Shown piece after piece: positions 704 to 15,969 of a DNA stretch of 15,969 nucleotides; the stretch's first letter is position 1; every line of letters starts with the position of its first letter. The notes beneath the pieces were generated by a model, which was not told where the DNA came from, did not search any database, and was given only the letters and a program-made list of their open reading frames with translations. The position numbers and the translations under genes are program-made. Source of the stretch: a virus; IMG/VR virus record IMGVR_UViG_3300020217_000047, positions 1-15,969 of that record, one strand, 5' to 3'.

Positions 704-1468
704 CTATGAATAAATGTCATTTACTTTTCTCATAACCTCATCATAATACTCTCCTAATGCCTTTTTACGTTCATTCCCATTCCCAAAATCCCCACGAATG
801 GTACGTTTTACTAGATCATCTATATCAACAATAGATTGATGATTACTAGAATTATCAACATTACCATTAATAATGTTTTGTACCCTTTCATAATATACAC
901 CTAGTTTCCTTTTACGTTCTTCACCATTCCCATATTTCCCTGCTATTGTATCCTTAACTAATTGATCTATTTTAACCTTATCCTTTTTTGAAGTAGGTTT
1001 ATTTCCTTTTACTTTTTCTTTAAATACACTCCAAGTAATTCCTTTATTCCCTGATCGTAAAATTCTTGGACAATTTTTCCCACTCCAGTAATTATGTTGA
1101 ACAACATTTTCGATAGGAATGTTATGCTTATCCATTAAATGCTTCACTAGTTCAATTGTATTATTTACAGTTTGTCTGTAATTACTATCACTATTAACGC
1201 ACATTTCAACACCAATTGAATTTTTATTTCCTTTTACATCTCCTGCATGCCAACATTGAACTTTATCTTTAAAAGATTGCACAATCTCAATATCATCTAC
1301 AGAATAATGCCAAGTTTCCTCACTACCGTTATCTATATATCTTGAATGGTTATCAGCCCCAGCACCTTTAGAAGTATTATCTGTTTCGTGAATAGTGATA
1401 AACTCACAACTATTAACACCATTATAATGATTTGAATTATCCGACAACATTTTTCTAATTTTAACCAT
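704..1468 (-). CDS. Endolysin: N-acetylmuramoyl-L-alanine amidase (Amidase_2/PGRP type) with two C-terminal CW_7 (Cpl-7-type) cell-wall-binding repeats
   Basis: The sequence carries a T7-lysozyme/PGRP-like zinc-ligand pattern (ITIHET ... QHNYWSGKNCP). Two 36-aa repeats are present, IDQLVKDTIAGKYGNGEERKRKLGVYYERVQNIING (nt 863-970) and IDDLVKRTIRGDFGNGNERKKALGEYYDEVMRKVND (nt 716-823), matching the CW_7 GNG-x-x-R...Y..V signature. It is the last gene of the operon, and its ATG overlaps the holin stop (TAATG). Confidence 0.85.
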   Translation of the reverse strand: MVKIRKMLSDNSNHYNGVNSCEFITIHETDNTSKGAGADNHSRYIDNGSEETWHYSVDDIEIVQSFKDKVQCWHAGDVKGNKNSIGVEMCVNSDSNYRQTVNNTIELVKHLMDKHNIPIENVVQHNYWSGKNCPRILRSGNKGITWSVFKEKVKGNKPTSKKDKVKIDQLVKDTIAGKYGNGEERKRKLGVYYERVQNIINGNVDNSSNHQSIVDIDDLVKRTIRGDFGNGNERKKALGEYYDEVMRKVNDIYS

Positions 1469-1766: not shown

Positions 1767-3293
1767 TTATAAATCAGCAGGATTCGGTAGACTTGTTTGA
1801 TTATCTCCTGTAACTTCCAAATAAGGTTCAGGATCAAACGTTGAATTCTCACCACTTGTACTACCATCTTTTGAGAGTACATAATGTAAATGAACCGCGA
1901 TACCTCCACCTGGTGTATTCCCCATTGTGGCTATTTTTTCCCCTGCTTTTACACTATCTCCAACACTCACAACATTGGAATTATTCACTAGATGCATATA
2001 GGTACTGTAATACTCGTCATTATCATGTTTAATTTGCATCATGAAACCTCCTGAATTACTCCATCTTGCAAATTGTACAACTCCAGCATTGGTAGCATAT
2101 ACATCTAAACCTGTTGTACCACCTGCACCAATGTCATACCCTGCATGAAAACGATTTCCACCATTTCTAGTATATCCATAACCCATTTCATGTTGGATTG
2201 TTCCCATTGGATAATTATCTTTTTGCCAAAAATTGACACCACTAGCATTAAAATCTACAGGGAAGTATTTTTCACCATTACCACCATCATTTCCACCATC
2301 ACCATTACCACCATCATCAGGATAGGTAATGTCAGGCTCTATACCATCGATAACATTCCCTAAATTATCTTTACCTGAATTAATAGAATCACTTATATTA
2401 TCTTTCCCTGCTTCTATAATCTCATTTAATATTTCATTAAAATTTAAAGTAGGTTTAATTTTATACATATTATCTAGTTGATTAATAATTTTTAAGAAGT
2501 TATTACCTTGCGTCTTGCTATTACCATATATATATAAATCTTTTGTAAGCATACTTTCTATTTCTTCTATTAACTCGTCTATCATTGCCTGAATTTGAGC
2601 CATTAAATCTTCAACAAAATCATCAAAGGAATCTGTTATTGGCGTAAAATCAATATCTACAATTGGCTCTGGATTAGGATCAGGGTCAGTACCTCCACTT
2701 TCTCCACCAATCACACCGCCCCAATCTTCTATAGCTGAAATCATATTATTAATCGGGGCACCATAATCCTGTACACCATTATATTCTGCTTTTAAACCAT
2801 CAGGATAATAAACTTCCCAAGTTGCCGCGGCTGTTCCCGCAATAACAACCCTACCAATTGTACCAGTTGGTAGGTTGGAAAAGTGGTCATTTCCTGCTTG
2901 CTTCACGTCATCAGGAACAAAATCTTTATAGTTGGCATAATCAATCCAAGCAGGATCATGGTCTGTACTATTGGATTGATCCTCTACCCAACTTCCAACA
3001 CTTTCCGCATCTTGAAAAGGATCACCTGCTGGGGTTGTATGGTTCAACCACCCCCATTGCGCGTTATACCCTTCTGTATATTCATAAGCACCGAAAAAAG
3101 CAGGGGAAACACCTTGATCTTTTACTATGTTTAACACGTCAACAATTTGCGAAACATTACCATTTAACCAAGCTGAAAACCGTCCGTATGACTTCACTTG
3201 TTCTGCCACTTCTTCAACACTTAACCCAAAATCACTTGAAACAGGTGATTCAACAAATTCTTTCATTTTTGGATCTTGAATAACATCTTCCAC
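1767..3293 (-). CDS. Tail-associated peptidoglycan hydrolase (phi29 gp13-like role): C-terminal M23/LytM metallopeptidase plus an N-terminal domain of uncertain, possibly glycosidase, type
   Basis: M23 motifs are present: HxxxD (FHAGYDIG) and HxH (VHLHYV), plus YMHL. A Gly/Asn/Asp-rich linker (DDGGNGDGGNDGGNG, about nt 2270-2325) precedes them. The GTG start at 3293 lies 7 nt after a GGAGG located in the end of the upstream gene. Confidence 0.8.
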   Translation of the reverse strand: MEDVIQDPKMKEFVESPVSSDFGLSVEEVAEQVKSYGRFSAWLNGNVSQIVDVLNIVKDQGVSPAFFGAYEYTEGYNAQWGWLNHTTPAGDPFQDAESVGSWVEDQSNSTDHDPAWIDYANYKDFVPDDVKQAGNDHFSNLPTGTIGRVVIAGTAAATWEVYYPDGLKAEYNGVQDYGAPINNMISAIEDWGGVIGGESGGTDPDPNPEPIVDIDFTPITDSFDDFVEDLMAQIQAMIDELIEEIESMLTKDLYIYGNSKTQGNNFLKIINQLDNMYKIKPTLNFNEILNEIIEAGKDNISDSINSGKDNLGNVIDGIEPDITYPDDGGNGDGGNDGGNGEKYFPVDFNASGVNFWQKDNYPMGTIQHEMGYGYTRNGGNRFHAGYDIGAGGTTGLDVYATNAGVVQFARWSNSGGFMMQIKHDNDEYYSTYMHLVNNSNVVSVGDSVKAGEKIATMGNTPGGGIAVHLHYVLSKDGSTSGENSTFDPEPYLEVTGDNQTSLPNPADL

Positions 3294-3297
3294 GTTA

Positions 3298-5040
3298 TCA
3301 CCTCCAAGTGTTGTCTAATACATTTTGTGTCATTGGATTAGGTGTGTTATTGTTATGCCAAAAACGTACACCGTTTTCAAATTGTGCTTTCATTTGCTCG
3401 ATAAGCGCAACGTCAACATTAGGAATTGTCCAGCTTCCTGAAAATTGAACATAGTTACATATGGTATGAGTGTTTACAACCACCCTACTGTTGTCGTCAT
3501 TTACCAAAAATCCAAACAAATTATAATATTTTTTCAGCTTGTCCAGTTCATGATCTGTTGGTTTACTATGCTTGATGGTTATCCCATAAAAGTTCTCACT
3601 TCTTTTCAAAGCGTTATCCGTACTTTGATTGGTGATTGTGTTATCCCCTAATGCTAAATCTTTTCGTTCTGCTTGCTGTTGTTTATAATAGTCGTGTTCA
3701 TCTGAAAATCGTCCAAATAGATTAGTAGGGGAAACGTTACTAATTAGGTTAGCCGCGTTATAAAAGCGATCTGATAAAGAAGCATTGCTATCCATGACTG
3801 TACCTACACGATTAGATGCAAGTGTACTTTCTTGATAGGCTCGTACATTCGCACTTTTTGACAAGGCAAGGGTATAGTTGTCTATTAATATAGGTATATC
3901 ATCAAAGTTTTTAAAATATATCGCATCATTTAAAAATGAACCTTCTCGATCATGTACCCCTTTATTTTTTACTTTGTAATTGTTTAAATAAACAGCAATT
4001 TCATTATGATACCCTGTTACAATAAGGCTCTTAAATTCAATCCCTGTATCTTCATTTAATAAACCCATATCGACAAGCAAACTTTGCCCGTCCCATGTGT
4101 ATATTTCTGTTGTAGCGTATTCGTTTCTTAATAAATGCCTATGTTCTTCTGATAGACCGTACAGATTATAAAGACTGTCCATTGAGTAATTCCAGTGTTT
4201 TATGTCCTCGTCAAATTCAGTACGATCCGAACTCCCTCCATCTTTAAAAATGGAAACAAAATCAACGTCAATACTATTAATAGATATTCTTTCAAGGTTA
4301 TCATCATTAATAAAGATAGATGGCACCATAATAATAGAAGTAAAGTTTTGAGTAATCCAAGGGTAAGGTGCTAGTAATTCCATTAAGGTTTTAAAATGAC
4401 GTTGTTTGACATGATACAAGTTGACAGGTGAGGACAGATTGTCATAGGTTAATCCCTCGCTTGTTTCGATTTTTGGATCGTCTACATGACCAAAATCTGC
4501 TGTTAAATCACATGTCGATTGTATAATAATGTCGAACTCGTGGAAGTCATATTGTTTTTCAGAAAAATAATGTTTGCTAGACGTTTTCAAAACATCATCA
4601 TTATTTTTTAATTCCCATAATCGTTCATCATATTCATTTTTTCTTAAATGCCTTCTTGTTACTGATAAATTAGGCAACAAGTGAAGTACAGCACCTTGTG
4701 TAAATGTCATGATAGGGTCAATTAACAAATACACCCTGACATTATTATCATTGATATATTCATAATTAATCACATAAGCATAATACCTTGTTTCAGGTTC
4801 AAAGTCTGATAAAAACGTACAATAATTAACACCCCTAAATTCTTTATAAGGGATAGGCACATCAATCGTACTTCTATCCCTGATAAAGTTAAAACGTAAC
4901 CCTTCTGTGTCTAATGTTTCATAATGTCCACCATGTAGAAAAAAGTCGTCACGTTCGGTATTGTTTTCAAAGTGAATCGTATTTTGAAAATCAATTAAAG
5001 GGGTGTTTTTAAAGAATATAAATTCTGTTAAATCGTTCAT
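3298..5040 (-). CDS. Tail knob / distal tail tube protein (phi29 gp9-like), about 580 aa
   Basis: The C-terminal block ICNYVQFSG...IEQMKAQFENGVRFWH resembles, from memory, the phi29 gp9 C-terminus (NYVQTKD...IFDNGITLWH). Size and position match: it lies between the tail fibre and the tail lysin. I prefer the ATG at 5040 (SD AAAGAGGTG, 6-nt spacer) over the track start, a GTG at 5049 that lies inside that SD. Confidence 0.75.
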   Translation of the reverse strand: MNDLTEFIFFKNTPLIDFQNTIHFENNTERDDFFLHGGHYETLDTEGLRFNFIRDRSTIDVPIPYKEFRGVNYCTFLSDFEPETRYYAYVINYEYINDNNVRVYLLIDPIMTFTQGAVLHLLPNLSVTRRHLRKNEYDERLWELKNNDDVLKTSSKHYFSEKQYDFHEFDIIIQSTCDLTADFGHVDDPKIETSEGLTYDNLSSPVNLYHVKQRHFKTLMELLAPYPWITQNFTSIIMVPSIFINDDNLERISINSIDVDFVSIFKDGGSSDRTEFDEDIKHWNYSMDSLYNLYGLSEEHRHLLRNEYATTEIYTWDGQSLLVDMGLLNEDTGIEFKSLIVTGYHNEIAVYLNNYKVKNKGVHDREGSFLNDAIYFKNFDDIPILIDNYTLALSKSANVRAYQESTLASNRVGTVMDSNASLSDRFYNAANLISNVSPTNLFGRFSDEHDYYKQQQAERKDLALGDNTITNQSTDNALKRSENFYGITIKHSKPTDHELDKLKKYYNLFGFLVNDDNSRVVVNTHTICNYVQFSGSWTIPNVDVALIEQMKAQFENGVRFWHNNNTPNPMTQNVLDNTWR

Positions 5041-5053
5041 TAAAAACACCTCT

Positions 5054-6985
5054 TTAATTTATTAACTCATTTTTACGTTTATTTTTGACAATATTACTTC
5101 CTACCAACCTTGATAATGTTGTGGCAATTGTGTTAGATGATTCTAACAATAATAAATATAAACAATCTCTTAATTTTATTTTATCACCTGCTTGTAAAGA
5201 TGGACCACTACCTCTTGTTATATCACTCTCTTCAACTTCTATAATTGTGTTCAAGTCTTTTAAGTAATCTAGTGTTATCATACATGTCATAATTTTAGTT
5301 AATGATGCTGGATATCCTTGTTCTAAAGAACGAACACTACCTATTGGATTAAAATTTCTTTCGGTATATGTGGCGGGGTTAATACCGTTCAGTAAAACAG
5401 CTGCACCCATTTTTGCATCAATATCATTATACAAAAGGTTATTTGCTTCACTTTCAGTTGGTTCATTTCCTTTTCCAAAAGCACTTGTTAAATTAACAAC
5501 AATTACATTATCAACATATCCATCTAAATTAGCATTATGCATTGCACCCACGTATAATGTATGTGATTGTTCTTCGTTTGTTTCAAAATAAATAGATGCA
5601 CGTTCAAAACCATCTGTTGTTCTTGAAATTGACCCTTCAATAATATTTCCATTAATTCTCGTTTGCAACCCTATTGCTCCTTGTGTGTAATCAATACAAT
5701 TACACATGCAACTAATAAAATATTTTTGTCCACCTAAAAAATTGACTGTTTTTCCAATTTGAGATGAAGTACCGTTTGAGGTTACGTTTAAACTATGAGG
5801 TGCAGAATACCAATACACATCTGAAATGCTAGGGTCACCGCTTAAAATATCCCATGTATCTAAACCTTCTGAAAAATTACCATTTTGTAAGAGGGTTTCA
5901 GCAAAACTAGCTTTTTGTCCATTTGCTAAAGCACGGGTTGCATTATCGTACATTAACCTTGTTGAAGTGTATCTGCTTTCATTAGCATCTAATACAACAC
6001 CTGCATATGACTTTGTTGTGTCTTTTGAGTTTACAATGGAAAATAAGTTCATTGTGTTTTGACCATTTGACGTTAATGTACCAGTTTTTCCTCCCATTAA
6101 TTGGTAATTGTTATCAATAGTACTTTTTAATACGGTACTAACTAAATCTAAATTTCTATTGTTTTTCCCTAAAATTTCTATGGTTCTTTCTTTTGTACCC
6201 CACGTATGGGATATATCTTTATAGGCACTAGCATGCAATCCCATCAACAACATATCTTTAGCTGTTGTTATTTGTTCTTCATGTGGTAATCCATGAGGAT
6301 TCATAAATTTTGTATTAAACATACCTATGTCTTTCGCTTTATCATTCATTGCATCTATAAATGTTTTTTTTGCTAAGGATTCATTAACATTTTCAGAAAA
6401 AGGATATTTAACATAGTTTTCAAATTCATCGAGTTGTTGATTTACTAAATTAATTTCATTACTCACATTATCTGTTGTTTTATTTAGTTTTGATTCAACA
6501 TATTCTGTCGTGTCCTCTAATTTTGTTTCTACATTGGAAGTTGTTTGTGCCAACTGTTGATTAACTGAATTAATATTATCGTCTATTTTTTGATTCAAAC
6601 GACTAACATCTTCTTCACGTTGTTGCACATTTTGTGCCAATTGTTGATTAACTGAATTCAGTTCATTATCAACATAATCAGTTGTTTCATTTAATTTTGT
6701 TTCTACATTGGAAGTTGTATCTTCCATTTCTGTATTTACTCTTTGTTCCATATCCTTTACATCTCGACGGTAATTTTCGACTTGTGCATTATAATTTCCA
6801 GTAAGCGACCAATATTCTTCATTATTAATATCAATACCAGCAGGCACATTTTTCTTTGAAGTATATGAACTACCTTCCCATAATACAATAGAAAGACTTT
6901 CATAATTCTTTTCTTTATCCCAAACTCCATCAGGTTTAGGCACGTACCTATTACCAACATAAATATTTTTGTATTTACTATCCAA
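5054..6985 (-). CDS. Tail fibre / appendage (receptor-binding) protein, 643 aa: N-terminal anchor, repetitive coiled coil, then a circularly permuted S11 DD-peptidase fold with an inserted jelly-roll carbohydrate-binding-like domain
   Basis: The coiled coil has TTSNVETKL and N(S/L)VNQQL(A/D) repeats (aa 85-190). Aa 205-350 carry FIDAMNDKAKDIGMFNTKFMNPHGL...TTAKDM...GGKTGT (KTG box). Aa 362-515 start NGNFSEGLDTWD and end LTSAFGKGNEPT (CBM-like). Aa 525-632 carry YPASLTKIMT (SxxK) and ESSNTIA (SxN). TTG start at 6985 with SD AAAGGGG. Confidence 0.8.
   Translation of the reverse strand: MDSKYKNIYVGNRYVPKPDGVWDKEKNYESLSIVLWEGSSYTSKKNVPAGIDINNEEYWSLTGNYNAQVENYRRDVKDMEQRVNTEMEDTTSNVETKLNETTDYVDNELNSVNQQLAQNVQQREEDVSRLNQKIDDNINSVNQQLAQTTSNVETKLEDTTEYVESKLNKTTDNVSNEINLVNQQLDEFENYVKYPFSENVNESLAKKTFIDAMNDKAKDIGMFNTKFMNPHGLPHEEQITTAKDMLLMGLHASAYKDISHTWGTKERTIEILGKNNRNLDLVSTVLKSTIDNNYQLMGGKTGTLTSNGQNTMNLFSIVNSKDTTKSYAGVVLDANESRYTSTRLMYDNATRALANGQKASFAETLLQNGNFSEGLDTWDILSGDPSISDVYWYSAPHSLNVTSNGTSSQIGKTVNFLGGQKYFISCMCNCIDYTQGAIGLQTRINGNIIEGSISRTTDGFERASIYFETNEEQSHTLYVGAMHNANLDGYVDNVIVVNLTSAFGKGNEPTESEANNLLYNDIDAKMGAAVLLNGINPATYTERNFNPIGSVRSLEQGYPASLTKIMTCMITLDYLKDLNTIIEVEESDITRGSGPSLQAGDKIKLRDCLYLLLLESSNTIATTLSRLVGSNIVKNKRKNELIN
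6519..6718. repeat. Near-identical direct DNA repeats inside the tail-fibre coiled-coil region
   Basis: A 26-nt exact repeat, aattttgtttctacattggaagttgt, occurs at 6519-6544 and 6693-6718. A 28-nt repeat, tttgtgccaa(c/t)tgttgattaactgaatt, occurs at 6544-6571 and 6631-6658 with one mismatch. Confidence 0.9.
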
Positions 6986-6998
6986 TTAAAAAACCCCT

Positions 6999-7397
6999 TT
7001 AATATTTTAAAACTAAATGACCATCATCAGTAGAATCGAATGTGATCGTGTTCCAACTATCAGGAATAACAGCAATAAAATACCCATCATTTAATCCGAA
7101 CCATACAATTTTTGATATTCTAGCCACTATATCAGTTAAATTTCTATCAATCCATTGTTCTAAACTATCTATATATTGTTCAACTAAATAGTCACCTTCT
7201 ACAATTCTTTCCAGTTCACTATTTATTTTTTCCTGCATATCTTTTATGGATTGAGCGAGTTTTTCGTCCTGACACTCTATTCTTTCAGCCATCATTTTTA
7301 GATATTCGTTTACCTTTGCTAAATAATCATAATAACTTTTTGCATTGGTTTTATAATCAGCACGTTTTGTATAAGATGGATAGAAACGTTTCGACAA
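6999..7397 (-). CDS. Structural protein of unknown function (132 aa, helical), probably associated with the neck or tail fibre
   Basis: SD AAAGGAGGGA lies 6 nt upstream of TTG at 7397 (product begins SKRFYPSYTKRADYKTNAKSYYDYLAKV). The track ORF (150 aa, to 7451) would overlap the upstream gene and has no SD. The gene sits between the lower collar and the tail fibre. The SYYDYL motif resembles N-termini of fibre proteins in Gram-positive phages (from memory, weak). Confidence 0.55.
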   Translation of the reverse strand: MSKRFYPSYTKRADYKTNAKSYYDYLAKVNEYLKMMAERIECQDEKLAQSIKDMQEKINSELERIVEGDYLVEQYIDSLEQWIDRNLTDIVARISKIVWFGLNDGYFIAVIPDSWNTITFDSTDDGHLVLKY

Positions 7398-7413
7398 TAT
7401 AAATCCCTCCTTT

Positions 7414-8154
7414 CTAAAAGACTTGCATAAAACAATTCTTTTCAAATTCAATAAAAACAGATTCTAGCAAGCCTTTTATTTTTATCAGATTGTCCATGGA
7501 ATATTGTCGGCTGATTGTATTTCCTTTTGTTTTTCCTATTGTTTCATTTTCATTTTCACCGATAGAAGTATTTTCATTGGTTGCACCGTCTTTACTTTTC
7601 GACAAATTAAACTCATTGGCATAGTCTAGTTCTGTATCATCCAAATTTACATTTACTTGTGATTGTGGTAAATCTGTTCTTGCATTTCTATTTTCGTTTA
7701 CCCCTTCATTTTTACCAGTCTGTTCATTCTTTGTTTTTCCTTTTGTAATACTATCATTTTCACCAGTCTGTTCACTTGTTTGTTCATTGGTTAGGAAAGA
7801 ATTTATATCATAGATATGATTGATAAATTCATCATTCATTAAAAAAGTTGTTCTTACTTTCATTGAAAAATCTTCTATTGTTTGAGCATTGATAGACTTA
7901 TTCAAGAAATGAAGAAGAAAGGTTTTCTTGAAATGTTTATCCGCATTTTCATCTATTAACCGTTCTCCTTTAAAAATTAAACCTTCCATTATATCTTGAA
8001 TATCTTTATCATAATCACTAATCTTTTTCATGAATGAAAAACTAGGGTCATGAAATGTCCATTTCCCATTGTTTTCTAGTTCATTAAACCCTCTTAAATC
8101 TAATTCACTATGGATAACATCATATAGATTAGGTGTTTTACTCAAGGTTTTCAC
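7414..8154 (-). CDS. Lower collar / tail tube protein (phi29 gp11 role)
   Basis: The gene lies immediately downstream of, and overlaps, the portal gene. Its size of about 245 aa is typical of small podovirus lower collars. It has a long polar central segment with EQTG(E/K)N repeats, which could form the tube hairpins. The start is ambiguous: either GTG at 8154, or TTG at 8145, which lies 5 nt after AAGGTGA. Confidence 0.6.
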   Translation of the reverse strand: MKTLSKTPNLYDVIHSELDLRGFNELENNGKWTFHDPSFSFMKKISDYDKDIQDIMEGLIFKGERLIDENADKHFKKTFLLHFLNKSINAQTIEDFSMKVRTTFLMNDEFINHIYDINSFLTNEQTSEQTGENDSITKGKTKNEQTGKNEGVNENRNARTDLPQSQVNVNLDDTELDYANEFNLSKSKDGATNENTSIGENENETIGKTKGNTISRQYSMDNLIKIKGLLESVFIEFEKNCFMQVF

Positions 8155-9103
8155 CTTCTTCTAACTTCTCTAATTCCATTATTTCACTTGCAACTTCATC
8201 ATTATAGATCACTTCAATATTTGTACCATAGCGTTTATTCAATTTCTTGAAAGCATGGTTTCTAGCTTCAATTTTAATATTAGCCATTGAAGTGGTAAAG
8301 GCTCTATTACTTTTCGCTTCCGTATCAGATACCCCACTTGACTTTTCCACCGCTAAACTATTAATTCCTAGCATGTTATTTAGTTCACTGATTTTATTTT
8401 GATATTCTCTTTTCAGTTCTGAAAATTGCATAGCAATGTTATCATTTTGTACACTTATCATGTTTTCGTCTACATCAAAATATTTACCAGTTTTAACAAA
8501 AGGTGAACCATTATATAGATCAGATACAAGTTGAACGATTGATTCGTCATTTTCGTCACCTTTAAAAAAGGTCTGTATTTTTGTTTGCATGGTTAGACTA
8601 TATCGGGATAAAACAATTTCAGCTAGTTCTTTTGTGTAGTGATTAATGATTTCTCTGTCCGACACATAGTTAAAAGTCTTGTTACGAACAACAACAAAAT
8701 TTCCTGTCTGACAATCATCTATATAAGAAATTTCTTTCATTTCGTTTGGGATAAACATTTTAGGAATTGTAAAATGTATATCTTCTTTTGTAATTACATT
8801 ACTAGAAAATAAGTTATCGGGGTTTTCTAGGGTATCTCTAGTTGTTACATACCCTAAAACTTGTACAGCCCCATTTTTTGCTTCCCCTATCACCACGTTA
8901 TAATTTTGTGTAAGAGCAGCTTCTAATTTTAAAAAGTCAATCGCTATATTATCAGGTTTGGTATAACTGAAAAGAGTGGGTAACATTTCCAAATAACGTA
9001 ACGAAAAAATTCGTATAAATTGTTGCTTATGTTGCACCACTCTTTCTTTTAGTTTGTCAGCTAAATCTAAACCAATCCCACCTCTTTCGATAAAGTTTGT
9101 CAT
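8138..9103 (-). CDS. Portal / upper collar connector protein (phi29 gp10-like), 321 aa
   Basis: Blocks align by eye with the remembered phi29 p10 sequence. [45 protein letters not shown] matches [66 protein letters not shown]...[12 protein letters not shown] matches [20 protein letters not shown]...NELYGLNVKVKF. The C-terminus is acidic, and the gene sits directly after the capsid gene. Confidence 0.85.
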   Translation of the reverse strand: [321 protein letters not shown]

Positions 9104-9104
9104 A

Positions 9105-10283
9105 TTAATTACCTACTTTAATAGAATTGTAGAATGGGGAAACAGATTTTGAACTGTAGTAATGTAACCAATACGTTACTTCGTCAAATTCTCCATTATA
9201 AAAAGGTGTTTTTAACATGTCTTTTGTATAACGTTTGTATCGTAATTTATTAATGTCGAAAATAAAAGCAAATTGATCGGTCTCAGGTTTAATTTCAACG
9301 ACTTTATCTGTAAAATCAGTTAATGAAGAAACATCAAACGTAATTACAACACCTGATGGTATGGTATCTCCCATTTCAATTTGATAGTCGTTATAGGTTC
9401 TGAAGTAATTAATGGTATCTTGACTAGCTACCTCAACATCTGCTGTGGTACGATACACCCCTCCTAGATCATCAAAAGAAATGATACGGTTAGACAGGTC
9501 TAAACCTTCTGCTTGATACGTTCCTGCTAGTTTGGTATCTAATAGATACGTTTTCATTTTGTCGTTTGTTAGGATAGCGGTATTGTCTAGTTTTGTAGAC
9601 GTTGTGTATCGACCTAATTCACCTCCACTTGCTTTGTTCGCTTCATTATACTTGTCAGAGTTATTTTGAATATTTAAGATAGCTTCAAACGTATTTTTAA
9701 ATACTTCTTCTGCTGATGTGGCAGGTCTAGTATCTTTTGTTACATTTAAAGCATAGTCTACTAACATGCCTTTGATTTCTCTTTCTTCTGATACGTTAAT
9801 ATCGGATATACGTTTCTTATAAACAGATAGAGCATAAGAAACGGCATCACCTAAAGTAGAAAAGTTCAAACGAACATCATTATTATTTAAGGTAAACTTT
9901 TGTTTCTTTAAAATTCCCGTACCATATAATTTACTAGCAATTTTAGGGTAGTTTCTTTTTAACATTAATTCTTCACTTTTCGATAGGTTCATAGAAATTG
10001 GAACACTATCCAAAATCACGTATTCCTCTGAATACTGTCCAATAAAATCTTCTTCTTTTGCCAACCAGTCAAATCGGTTGCCTAGATCAGCGTGAATTAA
10101 AAGCGTTTCATTGATTTTAGGAAAAAGATATTTATTAATAAACGTTTCAAATTGCTTACCTACACTTGTCCAGTTTGTTCCAAACGTCCAACCTGCATTA
10201 AAGTCATTATTAAACTGTTGCAAGGCTGATAAAGCTGAACCTGATAAAACTTTATTTGTTGTCTTTTTTGGTGTTGTTGCCAT
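9105..10283 (-). CDS. Major capsid protein (392 aa)
   Basis: Called from synteny: scaffold-like gene, microgene, this gene, then portal. The size is typical of small Picovirinae-type capsid proteins. A strong SD (ATAGGAGGT) lies upstream. No motif-level proof can be obtained by eye. Confidence 0.7.
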   Translation of the reverse strand: MATTPKKTTNKVLSGSALSALQQFNNDFNAGWTFGTNWTSVGKQFETFINKYLFPKINETLLIHADLGNRFDWLAKEEDFIGQYSEEYVILDSVPISMNLSKSEELMLKRNYPKIASKLYGTGILKKQKFTLNNNDVRLNFSTLGDAVSYALSVYKKRISDINVSEEREIKGMLVDYALNVTKDTRPATSAEEVFKNTFEAILNIQNNSDKYNEANKASGGELGRYTTSTKLDNTAILTNDKMKTYLLDTKLAGTYQAEGLDLSNRIISFDDLGGVYRTTADVEVASQDTINYFRTYNDYQIEMGDTIPSGVVITFDVSSLTDFTDKVVEIKPETDQFAFIFDINKLRYKRYTKDMLKTPFYNGEFDEVTYWLHYYSSKSVSPFYNSIKVGN

Positions 10284-10438
10284 TAATTATTACCTCCTAT
10301 ATTTTTAATTATACGTGTATATTCATCTTGTGACGAATTTTTAATCGTCATGTTATTATTTAATTCTCTGGACTTATCTAATTTGTTATCTTTAAAATCA
10401 GACTTCATCATAGGTCTAGTATTGTTAATTTCTGCCAT
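10283..10438 (-). CDS. Hypothetical 51-aa protein (MAEINNTRPMMKSDFKDNKLDKSRELNNNMTIKNSSQDEYTRIIKNIGGNN) between the scaffold-like and capsid genes
   Basis: Translated by hand; not in the ORF track. SD TAGGAGGT lies 7 nt upstream of ATG at 10438. The TAA stop overlaps the capsid ATG (TAATG), and the capsid SD lies within its last codons. Confidence 0.6.
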   Translation of the reverse strand: MAEINNTRPMMKSDFKDNKLDKSRELNNNMTIKNSSQDEYTRIIKNIGGNN

Positions 10439-10450
10439 GTTTAAAACCTC

Positions 10451-10690
10451 CTATTCAATATTTAATAATTGTTCAACTTCGTCTATTTCTTCTTCTGTAG
10501 GTTCTGTTTCTTCATTGTTATTATTTTCATCTTCATTATTGTTTTCTTCCTTGTTGTTAGTTTGTGAAAGACCTTCAAGAGTTTGTTTTGTTTCCTGTAA
10601 TTGCGTTTGCAAATCTGTTAAAAAACTTTCTAAATCTGCTTTTGTTTTCAATTTTAATCCTTCTTGTTTATCTTTGTTATTTTCTGCCAT
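10451..10690 (-). CDS. Acidic helical protein, candidate scaffolding protein (79 aa from the ATG at 10690)
   Basis: SD AGGAGGTG lies 6 nt upstream of ATG at 10690; the track GTG at 10699 is part of that SD. The product has an amphipathic helical N-half and an extremely acidic, Asn-rich C-half (NNKEENNNEDENNNNEETEPTEEEIDEVEQ). It sits just upstream of the capsid gene, like phi29 gp7. Confidence 0.5.
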   Translation of the reverse strand: MAENNKDKQEGLKLKTKADLESFLTDLQTQLQETKQTLEGLSQTNNKEENNNEDENNNNEETEPTEEEIDEVEQLLNIE

Positions 10691-10712
10691 TTTTGACACC
10701 TCCTGTAATTAA

Positions 10713-10741
10713 ATTATAAACGAAAAGAAGGAATTAATCAA
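10713..10741 (-). promoter_or_regulatory. Candidate promoter for the morphogenesis/lysis genes: TTGATT, 17-nt spacer, TATAAT
   Basis: On the - strand the -35 TTGATT (10741-10736) overlaps the polymerase stop codon region. The consensus -10 TATAAT (10718-10713) lies about 15 nt upstream of the scaffold-gene SD. Confidence 0.4.
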
Positions 10742-13019
10742 TATAATCCCTTCTTATCATATCTTCTTCCATTTCTAAATAGATTAATGGTTTTTTCATT
10801 TTCACTTCATTGGTAACAGGGTATAAATCAGATAAAGAAAAAGTTCCAAGTGTCGATTCGATATACATAATGTCAGGTGTATTACCTTCCATTTCTTCTC
10901 TTATTTTGTTGAATAATTTTTGTTTGAACGTATCGTAATTTTCGTCATAGGAAAAAATTCGATAGCCTTGACCTATGGATAGTTCTGTACTAGCAGGATA
11001 AATTGAAATGGTTCCTTGTTCATTGTAGATTGCTTTATTTGTTTGGATTGTAACCCCATCTGAAAACTGTGTTTTTATAAATTCGTCAAAAGACATATTT
11101 CGATCAAAGCTATCATGTGGCACACCACCACTTTTAATGATGATTTCTCCATCAACAACATAAGCATATTTTTTATGATTGAGTACATAGAATTGTTCGA
11201 TTTCATCATCTTGTATATCCCACTTTCCTAAATGGTAGGGATGGAATAGATTAGGTGATAGTTTATGCCTGATTTTACTTTTAAAGTATAAGCTGTCTGT
11301 ATCGGTATAGATCAGGTTATCATCTATTTCTTTTTGAGTAAGATATTTCAAAGGATCCAATAAGTTATATAGGGATACACTTGTTACGAATATACTAAAT
11401 ACAATATTTCTTTCATTGTTCTTATATCCATTCGGAACATTTTCCAAACTGTCACCATGATAACGGAATAAATTAAAATAAGGTCGTAAAGCTGGAATAC
11501 CGTATAAACCGTTCAATAATACTTTGGAATTGTCTACCTCTTCATTTGAAAATTTTTCCTTGTTTTCTTCTTCGGTTATTTCAATATCGTAAGGGCTGTT
11601 CATGACTATTTTTTTATTAAGTTTTCCTTGTGTTTTAATATAGTAATTTTCTTCAATATGTTGCCTGCTACCAAAGTACCTACATTCAAACGTGACATAG
11701 GAAAGAACATGTAACTGTTTAAATTCTAAGCCTGTGATATTCTCTATCATTTTAATCGTATATGTGTTGATATTAATAAAGTCATTCTTGGAATAGTATT
11801 TTACTAAGATTTGACGTAATAAGCGACTGTTTATCCTGTCTATGATTTCATTATCAAAACGTTTTTTGGTCATTCGGTAGAGAGTATATTCTTCGTCACG
11901 TTGATGAATCGGTATACTCTTTTCTATTTCATACGATTCATAACTTTTTAAAAATGTTGGTACTTTAAAATCATGCATAGCATATGGATAACTAGAATTA
12001 ATATCTATCGAAAACATTTTCTCTTTGATGATTTTACCAACATATTTTTGGTTATACATGTTCAGCCCACCACTATAAAAAGGCTTTAAATAATCATAAA
12101 AATTTTCGTTTGCAAATTTATAATTGGTATACTTGATATGTTTTCCATCTTTATTGTCACCAACTTTTTTAAGCAATTGATAACTTGTAAGATCATTGTC
12201 ATTATAAAAGTCTAATATATTAGATGTAAATGTGATTTTACTATAATCAAATCCTTTGAAAATTTGAGAATAATATTTAACAGAATAGGCAAGAATGATA
12301 ACATCATTCTCAATATAAGTTAGTTCATCTTTATCTAAGTTATTAAACACCTCATGAGCATACTCGTGGGCTTCTTCTTCCGTCATGTCATACGGTTTAT
12401 TGTATTTGCTATAGTTAAAATCCGTCTTTAGCTGATCGTCTGTTAAAACGTTAATCCGCTTTAATTTATGACCTAGTGTTGCAATAGAAACATTTGTTTT
12501 CATAAAGTTATCTGTTGTAAAAAAATGGATTCCTTTCAGAAAGAAAATTAATTCTAAGTTATTGCTTGACTTGATCCTCTTTTCTAAAATAATACCTTGC
12601 TGTTTTTCTTCTTTTGTCACCTTTGACGATTTAACCGTTAGGGTGTTTCCTTCTTCTGTTGCGTTTTTCAAGTACATATTTTTAACTATGGTTTCAGGGT
12701 AATAATATAAAATATCATGTCTTAAAAAATGATTGTCGTATTTGTTATTATTATGTGCTATTAGTTCTACCTTCGGGGTTGTTTTCCACTTTGACCAGGC
12801 ATTGAATATCGTTTCAAAGAATTGCCAAAAATTAGGGAATTTACTAATGTGTAGATCGTTACCGTCAAAATATGAAACAGCTAGGGAGTAGGTGACGTTC
12901 TTATATTTTGATGGTTTTTCCTTTCCTTCTTCTTCATTGTATTGTAAAGTTTCTATGTCAAAGAATAAACGTATATTCTTTTCTTTTCGATATTTGAGTA
13001 AATAATCTTTTAAGATCAT
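10734..13019 (-). CDS. Protein-primed family-B DNA polymerase (761 aa)
   Basis: All hallmark motifs are in the canonical order: Exo I FFDIETL, Exo II HNNNKYDNHFL, Exo III YIENDVIIL, motif A DINSSYPYAM (Dx2SLYP), motif B KVLLNGLYG (Kx3NSxYG), motif C YTDTDS and KxY HKKYAY. The ATG overlaps the ATPase stop (ATGA). Confidence 0.95.
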   Translation of the reverse strand: MILKDYLLKYRKEKNIRLFFDIETLQYNEEEGKEKPSKYKNVTYSLAVSYFDGNDLHISKFPNFWQFFETIFNAWSKWKTTPKVELIAHNNNKYDNHFLRHDILYYYPETIVKNMYLKNATEEGNTLTVKSSKVTKEEKQQGIILEKRIKSSNNLELIFFLKGIHFFTTDNFMKTNVSIATLGHKLKRINVLTDDQLKTDFNYSKYNKPYDMTEEEAHEYAHEVFNNLDKDELTYIENDVIILAYSVKYYSQIFKGFDYSKITFTSNILDFYNDNDLTSYQLLKKVGDNKDGKHIKYTNYKFANENFYDYLKPFYSGGLNMYNQKYVGKIIKEKMFSIDINSSYPYAMHDFKVPTFLKSYESYEIEKSIPIHQRDEEYTLYRMTKKRFDNEIIDRINSRLLRQILVKYYSKNDFININTYTIKMIENITGLEFKQLHVLSYVTFECRYFGSRQHIEENYYIKTQGKLNKKIVMNSPYDIEITEEENKEKFSNEEVDNSKVLLNGLYGIPALRPYFNLFRYHGDSLENVPNGYKNNERNIVFSIFVTSVSLYNLLDPLKYLTQKEIDDNLIYTDTDSLYFKSKIRHKLSPNLFHPYHLGKWDIQDDEIEQFYVLNHKKYAYVVDGEIIIKSGGVPHDSFDRNMSFDEFIKTQFSDGVTIQTNKAIYNEQGTISIYPASTELSIGQGYRIFSYDENYDTFKQKLFNKIREEMEGNTPDIMYIESTLGTFSLSDLYPVTNEVKMKKPLIYLEMEEDMIRRDYID

Positions 13020-14248
13020 AGTCCAAACTTCTTCAATAAGCCTTTTTTCGTTTGATCTATATAATTATCTTTATACTGTTTTTCTTTCTTATCAAAGTTC
13101 GATTCGTTTTGATTCATTGACATATATTTTGAAATGATTTTTGTTATCTTTAATTCGTTTAAAGCGTGAAAGCTATTTGTTACTAAATCTTTTGTAAAAT
13201 TGTTGTCGAATAAATAAAATTCTTTGCTATAGCGTTTCTTGTGTTTAAAATCGAAAAATGTTTCATCCAAATAAATGCTTTCATCTGTATTGTCTTTTAA
13301 CATTAAATTGAAGTCATAATGTTCACTAAAATAGATAACAGATAAAAGGATCAGGTTATTTTCTTCATTAAAAGTTATTTTCAAATAGTTGTCCTGTAGC
13401 TTTACAACTATAAAACGTGCGTTTTTCTTTAAAGCATTACGTTGTTTTTCTGTAATCAGGTTAAAAGAATTCGTTTTAAATTCCCCATGGGTCATACTGT
13501 CGTTTTCTTCATTAAAAGCTCTTAAATTACGTTGTTCATTTGCGGTTTCATTTTTATGCATTTCTAAGACAATATTATCATGTTTCCGTATGGTATTAAT
13601 AGGGTGTTTTTCAAGGATATTAAATAAGTCCAAATTAGATAAAACAGGAGATGAAAAGTTGACCGCATTTCCTAAATAAATTATTTTCGGGAATTTAATC
13701 AAAGGACGGTCCTCTTCACTTTTTCGGTCAATACTTCCATATATTGTTTTTAACCGTTCCCATTCATCAGGTAAATAATCACCTTCTAATGCTAAAAATT
13801 CATCATATACGATAACAGGAAAGTCCTCTAAATAGTTAGAATGATATTTTAAATCGGTTGCTTGATTTAAGTCTGTAATAATTCCTACCTCTTTATCTTT
13901 ATAAAGAATCGTAATATAGAAGTCAGTACGTAAAAACATAAAGTCCTTTAAATTGTATATTTTTGACTTGTCAAGTATTTTAATTAAAAACTTCTGATAG
14001 GCAAATCTCACCGTATACCTTCTCGCTAAAAGAGTAAACCGTATACCAAAATCAATAGATAGTTTTATAAGAGCATGAATATAGTTAAATGATTTTCCGT
14101 CACTTCGATTTGAAATACTTATATAATGGTCTACATCTTCATCTAATAAGTAATCTAGTAATTCAATTTGATTGTAACGTTCGGGTACGTTTTTCTTTCT
14201 GAAATTTTCTATGAATTTATAATACTTTTGTTCTTCTTTATTGTTCAT
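13016..14248 (-). CDS. DNA encapsidation (packaging) ATPase, phi29 gp16-type (410 aa)
   Basis: It has a Walker A-like NRSDGKS and a Walker B VIVYDEF. SD TAGGAGGT lies upstream. Size and motif pattern fit the encapsidation proteins of small protein-primed podoviruses. Confidence 0.75.
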   Translation of the reverse strand: MNNKEEQKYYKFIENFRKKNVPERYNQIELLDYLLDEDVDHYISISNRSDGKSFNYIHALIKLSIDFGIRFTLLARRYTVRFAYQKFLIKILDKSKIYNLKDFMFLRTDFYITILYKDKEVGIITDLNQATDLKYHSNYLEDFPVIVYDEFLALEGDYLPDEWERLKTIYGSIDRKSEEDRPLIKFPKIIYLGNAVNFSSPVLSNLDLFNILEKHPINTIRKHDNIVLEMHKNETANEQRNLRAFNEENDSMTHGEFKTNSFNLITEKQRNALKKNARFIVVKLQDNYLKITFNEENNLILLSVIYFSEHYDFNLMLKDNTDESIYLDETFFDFKHKKRYSKEFYLFDNNFTKDLVTNSFHALNELKITKIISKYMSMNQNESNFDKKEKQYKDNYIDQTKKGLLKKFGL

Positions 14249-14735: not shown

Positions 14736-15260
14736 TTATTTTTGTTCCAAGTGGGATAAAGCTAGATCAATTTGCACACCGTTTTGTCGTTTCGTTCCTG
14801 TTACTTTGACATAAATCTTTTTGTAATTTTCGTCATTCGGATAACCAAACGTTTGAAAAAGGTTTTTAATTGTATGATAAACAGATTTTGAAGAAGTGGC
14901 ATAGTAACTACCATTATCTTTTATAGTTGTTGTTACCCCATTTGTAGTTACCCCTGTCTTTTCGTCAAAACTCTGGTATGGATTCATGTAAACTTCATCT
15001 ATTCCAATTGTTTCATTAATCATTCGACCAAGTGGCTTTACAAGATCATTATCTTGTGAATTAAAGACTTTGTATAATTCAATTTGTTTTTCTTGTGTTT
15101 CAGGAATATGGGAATGAAATTTATGATACTTCATTTCTCTTCTAAACGTTCCATCTTGTAATTGCTTTACTACATAATTTTCTGTTTCCTCAACTACTCT
15201 TTCCTTTACAATCATTTCACCAGTTTCTGTGTTTACCATCATTTCATTTTTTTCAGTCAT
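14736..15260 (-). CDS. Early protein (174 aa), possibly a phage-type ssDNA-binding protein; function uncertain
   Basis: SD AGGAGGAA lies upstream. The overall pattern (acidic N-terminus, then ...IGIDEVY...DEKTGVTTNGVTTTIKDNGSYYATSSKSVYHTIKNLFQTFG...) resembles, from memory, the lactococcal/staphylococcal phage SSB family. It occupies an early position next to the replication genes. Confidence 0.45.
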   Translation of the reverse strand: MTEKNEMMVNTETGEMIVKERVVEETENYVVKQLQDGTFRREMKYHKFHSHIPETQEKQIELYKVFNSQDNDLVKPLGRMINETIGIDEVYMNPYQSFDEKTGVTTNGVTTTIKDNGSYYATSSKSVYHTIKNLFQTFGYPNDENYKKIYVKVTGTKRQNGVQIDLALSHLEQK

Positions 15261-15792: not shown

Positions 15793-15820
15793 ATTATACT
15801 ATTTTTCACAAATATTGCAA
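15793..15820 (-). promoter_or_regulatory. Right-end early promoter: TTGCAA, 16-nt spacer, TATAAT
   Basis: The -35 TTGCAA (15815-15820, itself palindromic) lies inside the ITR and is the mirror of 150-155. The consensus -10 TATAAT (- strand, 15798-15793) is in unique DNA. The SD of the 48-aa ORF follows within about 10 nt. Confidence 0.65.
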
Positions 15821-15969
15821 GGGTAAATTTGTTTTATTTTTAAATTTGTCTTAGACAAAAATTGATGAAAATAAAATTTTATTTTGTCGAAAATTTGTTG
15901 TACTTTTTTGTTGCATTTTTGTTCGATATATGTTAACAGGGGTGGGACAGGTCTACAATTTTTTTCTCG
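15810..15969. repeat. Right inverted terminal repeat (160 bp)
   Basis: Exact reverse complement of 1..160, checked base by base. Confidence 0.97.

Follow-up and report, generated by a model that had tools for sequence, protein, structure and literature searches.

The window analysed here is the whole 15,969-nucleotide stretch of the viral record IMGVR_UViG_3300020217_000047 (IMG/VR), and the gene under study is a single open reading frame (ORF) at 5054..6985 on the minus strand, which encodes a 643-aa protein. We found that this protein aligns with the S11 peptidases, the low-molecular-weight penicillin-binding proteins (PBPs), in two halves that stand in swapped order on either side of an inserted jelly roll of the carbohydrate-binding-module (CBM) type. 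We regard this architecture, with an anchor, a stalk and a circularly permuted head, as almost certain. The explanation that we favour overall, and consider rather likely, is that the protein is a phage fibre whose permuted S11 head acts on wall peptides. From the N-terminus to the C-terminus of the protein, the predicted layout is as follows.

5054..6985, minus strand: whole candidate fibre gene, 643 aa plus stop codon, with the TTG start as listed
6761..6985, minus strand: predicted N-terminal virion-anchor domain, aa 1-75, with the pattern YVGxRYVP...SYTSK..VP...GNYNAQVExYR
6401..6760, minus strand: alpha-helical, coiled-coil-like stalk with internal repeats, aa 76-195, weak Pfam and PDB matches
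5915..6373, minus strand: C-terminal half of the S11 domain (C-half), aa 205-357, profile positions 119-219 of PF00768 and 109-186 of DacB
6080-6088, minus strand: KTG box, K300-T-G302
5441..5902, minus strand: jelly-roll insert, CBM4/9/16/22-like, aa 362-515, assigned with Foldseek against PDB and BFVD
5090..5413, minus strand: N-terminal half of the S11 domain (N-half), aa 525-632, profile positions 16-102 of PF13354 and 34-106 of DacB
5294-5305, minus strand: SxxK box, S561-L-T-K564
5132-5140, minus strand: SxN box, S616-S-N618
5057..5089, minus strand: short C-terminal tail, aa 633-643, the protein ending with the permuted domain

Swapped halves of an S11 domain

By searching the 643-aa protein with Pfam profiles, we found that PF00768 (Peptidase_S11) matches it in two stretches, with a score of 68.7 bits (E 7e-19; the cut-off is 27.6). 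The strongest of these covers aa 206-311 and represents the second half of the model (profile positions 119-219). The first half of a related model, PF13354 (Beta-lactamase2, profile positions 16-102), is found at aa 552-632. With phmmer against the PDB, DacB of Bacillus subtilis (chain 3mfd_A) was matched at E 2e-16, query residues 559-631 aligning with chain residues 34-106 and query residues 208-284 with chain residues 109-186. From this two-piece alignment it follows that the order is swapped and that the new termini lie no more than two residues from one point of the canonical chain. Such a swapped match to an S11 enzyme is far beyond chance. All three S11 boxes (SxxK, SxN and KTG) are present and align with the motifs of DacB. 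Instead of the canonical order SxxK, SxN, KTG, the protein has KTG at aa 300 and then SxxK at 561 and SxN at 616, with a 150-aa insert. On this evidence the protein is an S11 homologue with a changed topology and not a canonical member of the family. A PHROGs profile search of the 643 residues recognised the peptidase part alone.

Then, the N-half (aa 516-631) and the C-half (aa 204-362) were excised and fused in the canonical order. The profile of the re-joined domain was built from 13 sequences, those of the window protein and 12 relatives, the halves having been extracted from 20 alignment rows. This profile matches solved S11 enzymes of the PDB in a single continuous stretch, which is what a true circular permutation predicts. 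The matches are to DacB (3mfd, E 1e-33), to the PbpG-type DD-endopeptidases 6muq and 6azi (E 2e-28 and 1e-27; for 6muq, profile positions 21-245 on chain residues 19-236), to the Streptomyces K15 DD-transpeptidase 1es4 (profile 25-245 on chain 15-242) and to Escherichia coli PBP5 (1nzo, profile 24-245 on chain 23-242).

We also modelled aa 195-643 with AlphaFold2 as a monomer, from 20 sequences and with no templates. The model has a mean predicted local distance difference test (pLDDT) of 88.7 and a predicted template modelling (pTM) score of 0.76. In the C-half, pLDDT lies mostly between 82 and 98, with one 10-residue block of 73 at its start, and the elements run from alpha6 and alpha8 through a hairpin and the KTG-bearing strand beta3 to beta4, beta5 and the helix that ends the native domain. 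The middle part is an all-beta module, and the N-half (pLDDT 81-97) contains beta1, beta2, the helix with SxxK and a pair of helices that flank SxN. When read cyclically, the order of elements in the predicted structure is the canonical S11 topology, as described for K15 and PBP5. From the way pTM is defined, a value of 0.76 over parts of about 160, 150 and 130 residues would hardly arise if the mutual placement of the three were not confident. P0134 (255 aa), a permuted relative that lacks the insert, was modelled as one compact domain with pLDDT 93.2 and pTM 0.91.

The fold of the insert was identified with Foldseek against the PDB, in which the CBM16 structures 2zex and 2zew came top (E 4e-8 to 5e-8, target-normalised TM score 0.71-0.77, root-mean-square deviation 3.4-3.9 Å over about 145 columns), followed by matches to CBM22, CBM4-2 and CBM61. 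Identity to solved CBMs is 15-18%. In BFVD, the insert matches CBMs of tail-fibre and minor-tail proteins. For the model as a whole, BFVD gave no analogue, the highest query-normalised TM score being 0.28 and the top matches all being fibre CBMs. The Pfam model CBM_4_9 does not reach significance in the window protein but is found in 9 of 28 same-topology relatives, with a best E of 1e-5.

A preliminary description of the window, drawn from the letters alone, had claimed that an S11/PBP5-type domain is circularly permuted at one contiguous point with its three catalytic boxes intact, and had named PF00768 searches, structure prediction and a homologue search as checks. Pfam, DacB and the re-joined profile agree with the permutation, and PF00768 indeed gave two partial matches in swapped order. 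The boxes are intact and, as described below, near-invariant across 163 relatives, and the monomer prediction gave the confident three-part model with pTM 0.76. The same description had a CBM-like jelly roll bridging the native termini, which is borne out by the CBM16 matches of Foldseek and by CBM_4_9 in the relatives; in the model it leads from the helix at the native C-terminus to the strand at the native N-terminus. On sequence and models, the reading given there is supported. Its residue numbers and nucleotide ranges were exact on recheck, including aa 205-350 for nt 5936-6373, aa 362-515 for nt 5441-5902 and aa 525-632 for nt 5090-5413.

A clade of permuted S11 domains

Searching with aa 195-643, we obtained 14 proteins, the window protein and 13 besides, that align over 96-99% of the query at 35-44% identity and in the same order. 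By an exhaustive profile search of 1.84 billion representatives, we found 1,339 proteins with E <= 1e-30. Topology was assigned to the best 150 of these with separate hidden Markov models for the C-half, the jelly roll and the N-half.

C-half then N-half, directly joined: 104 of 150, 61 with a homologous jelly roll upstream
C-half, jelly roll, N-half (the window's order): 19 of 150, 2 with an extra jelly roll upstream
Second break point: 22 of 150, with beta5 and the C-terminal helix ahead of an otherwise canonical domain that ends just past the strand following KTG
Canonical order: 3 of 150
Other: 2 of 150, P0267 (two S11 domains, N-C-N-C) and P0315 (jelly rolls only)

The permutation is thus conserved, as the homologue search was meant to reveal. 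In total, 27 other proteins at 22-39% identity keep the window's order and 131 more are permuted otherwise; PF00768 is matched by 28 of 28 same-topology relatives. Where the C-half is joined directly to the N-half, linkers of about 10-25 aa are seen in the aligned examples. The second permutation point occurs within the same clade in 23 proteins, including P0005, P0137, P0264 and P0274.

These relatives bear on two other ways of accounting for the gene. The first is that the order is an artefact of faulty assembly or of a chimeric contig, or that the halves are decayed PBP fragments without function, which the oddity of the order, and nothing more, would favour. An identical protein with the same neighbours is present in the Logan assembly SRR7698817 (which could be the same sample), the 27 same-order and 131 otherwise permuted proteins repeat the oddity, the catalytic motifs are strongly conserved, and the frame is intact in a genome with 160-bp inverted terminal repeats. 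The relatives, the motif conservation and the intact frame effectively refute an artefact, the chance of which we regard as negligible. The second is a domain swap within a trimer, the C-half of one subunit pairing with the N-half of its neighbour and the jelly roll acting as a spacer. Fibres of this kind are usually trimers, as in phi29 and P68; a 150-aa insert would permit such a swap, and the models are monomers only. Against this, the monomer model places all three parts confidently, the halves are joined by a short linker in 104 of the best 150 relatives, and P0134 is compact. We therefore find a swap very improbable and keep to a head that closes within one chain.

Catalytic residues were compared in 163 domains with mutual identity of at most about 50%. 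In the SxxK box, the serine is present in 161 and the lysine in all 163; in SxN, serine and asparagine are each found in 162; and in KTG, the lysine is kept in 161 and the glycine in 162. The residue after KTG is T or S in 147 of the 163.

A neighbour-joining tree was computed on the shared columns; being rough, without support values and biased in its sampling, it is indicative only. First, all 159 permuted proteins fall in one clade, with a single canonical sequence inside. Second, the group with the second break point is monophyletic (23 of 23). Third, the closest non-self relatives of the window type are C-half/N-half proteins in 24 of 28 cases. From these sequence comparisons, the data suggest one old permutation followed by further rearrangements. 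They also suggest that the window form arose from a jelly roll moved or duplicated into the linker, P0245 and P0247 (CBM/C-half/CBM/N-half) being possible intermediates. The N-C-N-C protein P0267 was considered as a tandem-duplication intermediate and is not relied on, as its first copy is truncated and lies about 370 aa from the second.

Members of the clade occur in several settings. With the window's topology, P0002 lies directly after the tape measure and Dit genes of a siphophage, P0123 is in an SPbeta-like tail module, other heads stand behind BppU_N anchors, and P0240 and P0246 are two further podophage fibres with both the anchor and the topology of the window. The anchor-less P0131 (locus L002) is found among ATP-grasp and Mur-ligase genes, and P0134 (locus L005) beside Mur-ligase/LRR/S11 fusions and D-Ala-D-Ala ligase genes. 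With their many genes for ATP-grasp (YheCD/ST-type), Mur-ligase and D-Ala-D-Ala-ligase enzymes, these loci hint at an uncharacterised pathway for D-amino-acid peptides. Other permuted members are predicted lipoproteins or dockerin carriers. One member is encoded between lgt and whiA in a metagenome-assembled genome of Bacilli, and the relatives in reference genomes are mostly from gut Clostridia such as Lachnospiraceae and Oscillospiraceae. In cultured phages, the 439-aa "serine hydrolase" XDJ02811.1 of Staphylococcus phage UHP46 (locus L009, 2509-3828), also present in ZCSS1, has the C-half followed by the N-half. Its S11 domain stands behind two copies of the repeat AYDIAVDNGF.GTE.EW, and a similar motif is seen in P0003. 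Searches of GenBank phage DNA and proteins gave no record with the C-half/CBM/N-half order.

Fibre assignment and genome context

The window ends in perfect 160-bp inverted terminal repeats (nt 1-160 and 15810-15969) and has a G+C content of 30.7%. Given these repeats, we take it to be the full genome, linear and 15,969 bp long, of a phi29-like, protein-primed podophage. In GenBank phage DNA nothing close to it was found, the nearest being distant Rountreeviridae of Staphylococcus and Enterococcus with at most 3% of the DNA matched.

Several findings concern the place of the 643-aa protein in the virion. First, its anchor is common to more than 115 protein clusters at 50-65% identity over the first 75-85 residues, mostly on contigs of 14-18 kb (proteins P0004-P0120). 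The C-termini of these proteins are unrelated enzymes and include SGNH esterases, pectate-lyase beta-helices, a glycerophosphodiester phosphodiesterase (GDPD), a polysaccharide deacetylase, a pectinesterase and a GH43. Second, the anchor is also found in the fibre-position gene of the isolated Eggerthella phage LE1-1 (Guelinviridae), in which the order of lower collar, a 152-aa "minor tail protein" and the anchor gene is the same as in the window. The anchor has no PDB relative by profile search and no Pfam or PHROG model. Third, in 27 of 28 relatives with the window's topology just 4-12 residues follow the N-half, which indicates that the domain forms the distal tip. The stalk (aa 76-195) has weak coiled-coil-type matches only, in Pfam and the PDB (apolipoprotein, Lpp), and in this region aa 73-99 match aa 131-157; we infer that the fibre is trimeric.

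The synteny and the modular anchor lead us to accept the tail-fibre assignment, and the 643-aa protein is very likely an exchangeable tail fibre or appendage of a phi29-like podophage. This agrees with the preliminary description, which had called it a tail fibre, its gene lying between those of the lower collar and the tail knob in a phi29-like genome. That it is a lysis enzyme rather than a structural protein was considered and rejected. The other annotated genes of the window are the following.

14736-15260, minus strand: phi29-type single-stranded DNA-binding protein
13016-14248, minus strand: encapsidation ATPase (terminase)
10734-13019, minus strand: DNA polymerase B (phrog_1907), phi29-type by context
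9105-10283, minus strand: major head protein
8138-9103, minus strand: upper collar
7414-8154, minus strand: lower collar (phrog_3225, phrog_5472)
6999-7451, minus strand: 150-aa ORF between the collar and fibre genes, at the position of the LE1-1 "minor tail protein"
3298-5049, minus strand: tail knob, phi29 gp9-like, directly downstream of the fibre gene (phrog_2248, E 2e-164; Caud_tail_N and phi29_gp9_C)
1767-3293, minus strand: tail-associated lysin, 508 aa, with a C-terminal M23 peptidase domain
704-1468, minus strand: endolysin, Amidase_2 plus CW_7 repeats

If read from its listed TTG start, the 150-aa ORF has 38 nt in common with the end of the lower collar gene. In the public gene call of an identical contig it has 132 aa, and the true start is probably further downstream; it has one weak PHROG match and is otherwise without a family. 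At 761 aa, the DNA polymerase is long for the phage group, the PHROG profile having 629 positions. An ORF of 120 aa (10350-10712, plus strand), with no family match, is found between the genes of the polymerase and the head protein, opposite in strand to both. The N-terminal part of the tail lysin is a 300-aa domain of unknown function (phrog_5979), which is followed by M23. The endolysin, the tail lysin and the PBP-like domain of the fibre are three different predicted peptidoglycan-directed enzymes in one genome.

Possible action of the head on the host wall

Our proposal for how the fibre works is as follows. The 75-aa anchor and the helical stalk would carry a distal head made of a single S11 (low-molecular-weight PBP) domain, with alpha6...KTG-beta3-beta4-beta5-alpha11 first and beta1-beta2-SxxK...SxN last, and with a CBM4/16/22-type jelly roll at the junction of the native C- and N-termini. 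On folding, the halves would come together as a single PBP domain that has a single active site. This head would recognise the thick wall of a Gram-positive host, the jelly roll binding wall glycan and the PBP domain engaging, by the acyl-serine mechanism usual for PBPs, stem peptides that are D-Ala-D-Ala-terminated or DD-cross-linked; the peptides may be either trimmed or cleaved (carboxy- or endopeptidase) or transiently held. Adsorption and local loosening of the wall would thereby be aided before the M23 tail lysin acts. The head was probably recruited from the older permuted S11 clade, whose members usually bear the same jelly roll upstream.

Within this proposal, DD-peptidase chemistry on peptidoglycan is a prediction from sequence towards which the balance tips slightly. 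T or S after KTG fits the recognition of a terminal carboxylate in PBPs. The best NCBIfam match is a D-Ala-D-Ala endopeptidase, and a PBP5-type C-terminal domain is absent; together with the PDB relatives, these features give hints of an endopeptidase-type chemistry.

Several observations weigh against this view. The segment between alpha8 and KTG is, in our reading of the alignment, unlike that of canonical S11 enzymes, G.NAR...TTV replacing N.N.LL, and the substrate may therefore differ. The genome already encodes an M23 peptidase and an amidase, and the need for a further peptidoglycan peptidase is not obvious. In addition, Foldseek searches of the PDB retrieved no PBP: among the best 50 matches of the window model there were CBMs only, and the model of P0134 gave nothing significant (best E 0.014). 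The support for a PBP fold therefore comes from sequence profiles and AlphaFold2 confidence. Foldseek aligns sequentially, and the signed sequence separation from the nearest neighbour in space, which its 3Di alphabet encodes, may be the cause of the failure on P0134. For its part, P0134 has a strong sequence-profile match to S11 enzymes despite the empty Foldseek result. Pipelines that annotate from structure may miss permuted S11 domains.

The divergent segment before KTG would also fit another substrate. The PBP-like head could be a D-alanyl esterase on teichoic acids, similar to FmtA, or could act on another D-amino-acid polymer of the wall, in which case D-Ala decorations would be stripped or recognised so that the fibre reaches its receptor. 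FmtA, an enzyme of PBP fold with D-amino esterase activity on teichoic acids (PMC4752606), is a precedent. Moreover, fibres with the same anchor bear SGNH esterases, a GDPD and deacetylases, all expected to work on teichoic acids or wall polysaccharides, and the anchor-less relatives in loci with ATP-grasp, Mur-ligase and Ddl genes suggest unusual D-amino-acid peptide substrates. Against an esterase, the fibre domain has DD-carboxypeptidases, DD-endopeptidases and DD-transpeptidases as its nearest solved relatives. FmtA is a member of the S12/AmpC-like branch and has YxN but lacks KTG. In the fibre domain, by contrast, the S11 triad SxxK/SxN/KTG(T/S) is complete, as is typical of enzymes binding a C-terminal D-Ala carboxylate. 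We consider an esterase unlikely.

It could also be that the head is a receptor-binding module without hydrolysis, the PBP pocket (perhaps as a long-lived acyl-enzyme) binding stem peptides and the jelly roll adding affinity for glycan. The protein is at the receptor-binding position, with the domain at the distal end, CBMs are common in receptor-binding proteins, and PBPs naturally form covalent intermediates. The near-invariance of the acylation and deacylation residues in 163 members is more typical of an active enzyme, and this makes pure binding quite unlikely in our eyes, even if a covalent binder would likewise need Ser, Lys and KTG.

Comparison with known systems helps to place the fibre. 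Once its halves are re-joined, the domain is homologous over the whole penicillin-binding domain to the S11 low-molecular-weight PBPs (DacB/PBP5*, 3mfd; PbpG/PBP7-type enzymes, 6muq and 6azi; K15, 1skf and 1es4; E. coli PBP5, 1nzo) with E from 1e-33 to 1e-16, and it has the same SxxK, SxN and KTG(T/S) motifs. Like PBP7 and K15, it is without the C-terminal beta-sandwich of PBP5. In contrast to all these enzymes, the fibre has its halves in swapped order: the chain is opened between the FxxxMNxKA helix and the one that follows SxN, the native termini are bridged by a 150-aa jelly roll, and the segment ahead of KTG is divergent. Its domain is attached to a fibre stalk, and neither a signal peptide nor a membrane anchor is present. 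The UHP46/ZCSS1 (Herelleviridae) protein XDJ02811.1, which is 39% identical to the window's halves, and about 100 metagenomic C-half/N-half clusters share the break point and the clade of the window. These clusters often have the same jelly roll, but upstream of the domain and not inside it, the halves being joined by a short linker, and several members, unlike the fibre, are bacterial lipoproteins, dockerin proteins or products of chromosomal genes.

A PBP-like domain on a phage tail protein is not new in itself, since gp39 of mycobacteriophage Omega, a virion tail component by mass spectrometry, has a domain of the PBP/beta-lactamase superfamily, with a canonical motif at residues 64-268 of this siphophage tail-tip protein (PMC3706429). 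By its description, Omega gp39 is set apart from the fibre, as neither a permutation nor an inserted CBM is reported. A canonical-order S11 domain is also found at the end of P0148 (746 aa), a T7-type tail fibre with a Phage_T7_tail N-terminal domain; PBP-like fibre heads thus exist in both chain orders, in phages of different types.

Tails of the phi29 and P68 type share with the window the same flanking genes (lower collar and tail knob) and the same design of anchor, stalk and distal head. The phi29 gp12 appendages and the P68 gp17 fibres end in beta-helix or other heads that act on or bind teichoic acid; these heads are not PBPs, and neither protein has detectable sequence similarity to the fibre. 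Peptidases borne on the virion are known from phi29 gp13 and other tail-tip M23 DD-endopeptidases. Both phi29 gp13 and the 508-aa M23 protein of the window may also cut DD-cross-links during entry, the difference being a metallopeptidase fold at the tail tip versus a serine PBP fold on the fibres. As for the permutation, engineered circular permutants of TEM-1 tell that the PBP/beta-lactamase fold tolerates joined native termini and new termini elsewhere. These are laboratory constructs, whereas the permutation in the fibre family would be natural, ancient and diversified.

In full-text searches of a limited collection of papers, we found no circular permutation occurring in nature for the fold of PBPs, DD-peptidases or serine beta-lactamases; co-occurrences of terms in the Lipocone preprint were set aside because they concern another fold. 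The preliminary description had known of no permuted PBP on a phage fibre. We likewise found no published one, but the permuted domain is not peculiar to this fibre, and the wider permuted S11 clade appears to be undescribed. Public annotations of its members read only "serine hydrolase" or "D-alanyl-D-alanine carboxypeptidase". As Foldseek did not recognise the domain and profile searches give two partial matches, members end up labelled "serine hydrolase" or "hypothetical".

We also put forward, as a tentative and rather doubtful extension, that a large unrecognised clade of permuted S11 enzymes took on at least three topologies (C-half/N-half; C-half/CBM/N-half; beta5-alpha11/N-half/truncated C-half) through rounds of duplication and trimming, and that phages of several morphotypes use them as distal fibre heads. 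These heads would be catalytically live on the virion and apply the PBP acyl-serine step to D-Ala-D-Ala stem peptides, and adsorption would then involve a transient covalent bond to peptidoglycan that beta-lactams could block.

Few protein folds have been studied as much as those of PBPs and beta-lactamases. With three topologies, intact motifs and a domain placed at the old termini, the permuted clade offers a natural test set for how a permutation arises and what it changes. For the phages, a serine DD-peptidase head would join the exchangeable fibre enzymes aimed at Gram-positive walls. If this proves true, the stem peptides of peptidoglycan can be a phage receptor or substrate, and beta-lactams might interfere with adsorption.

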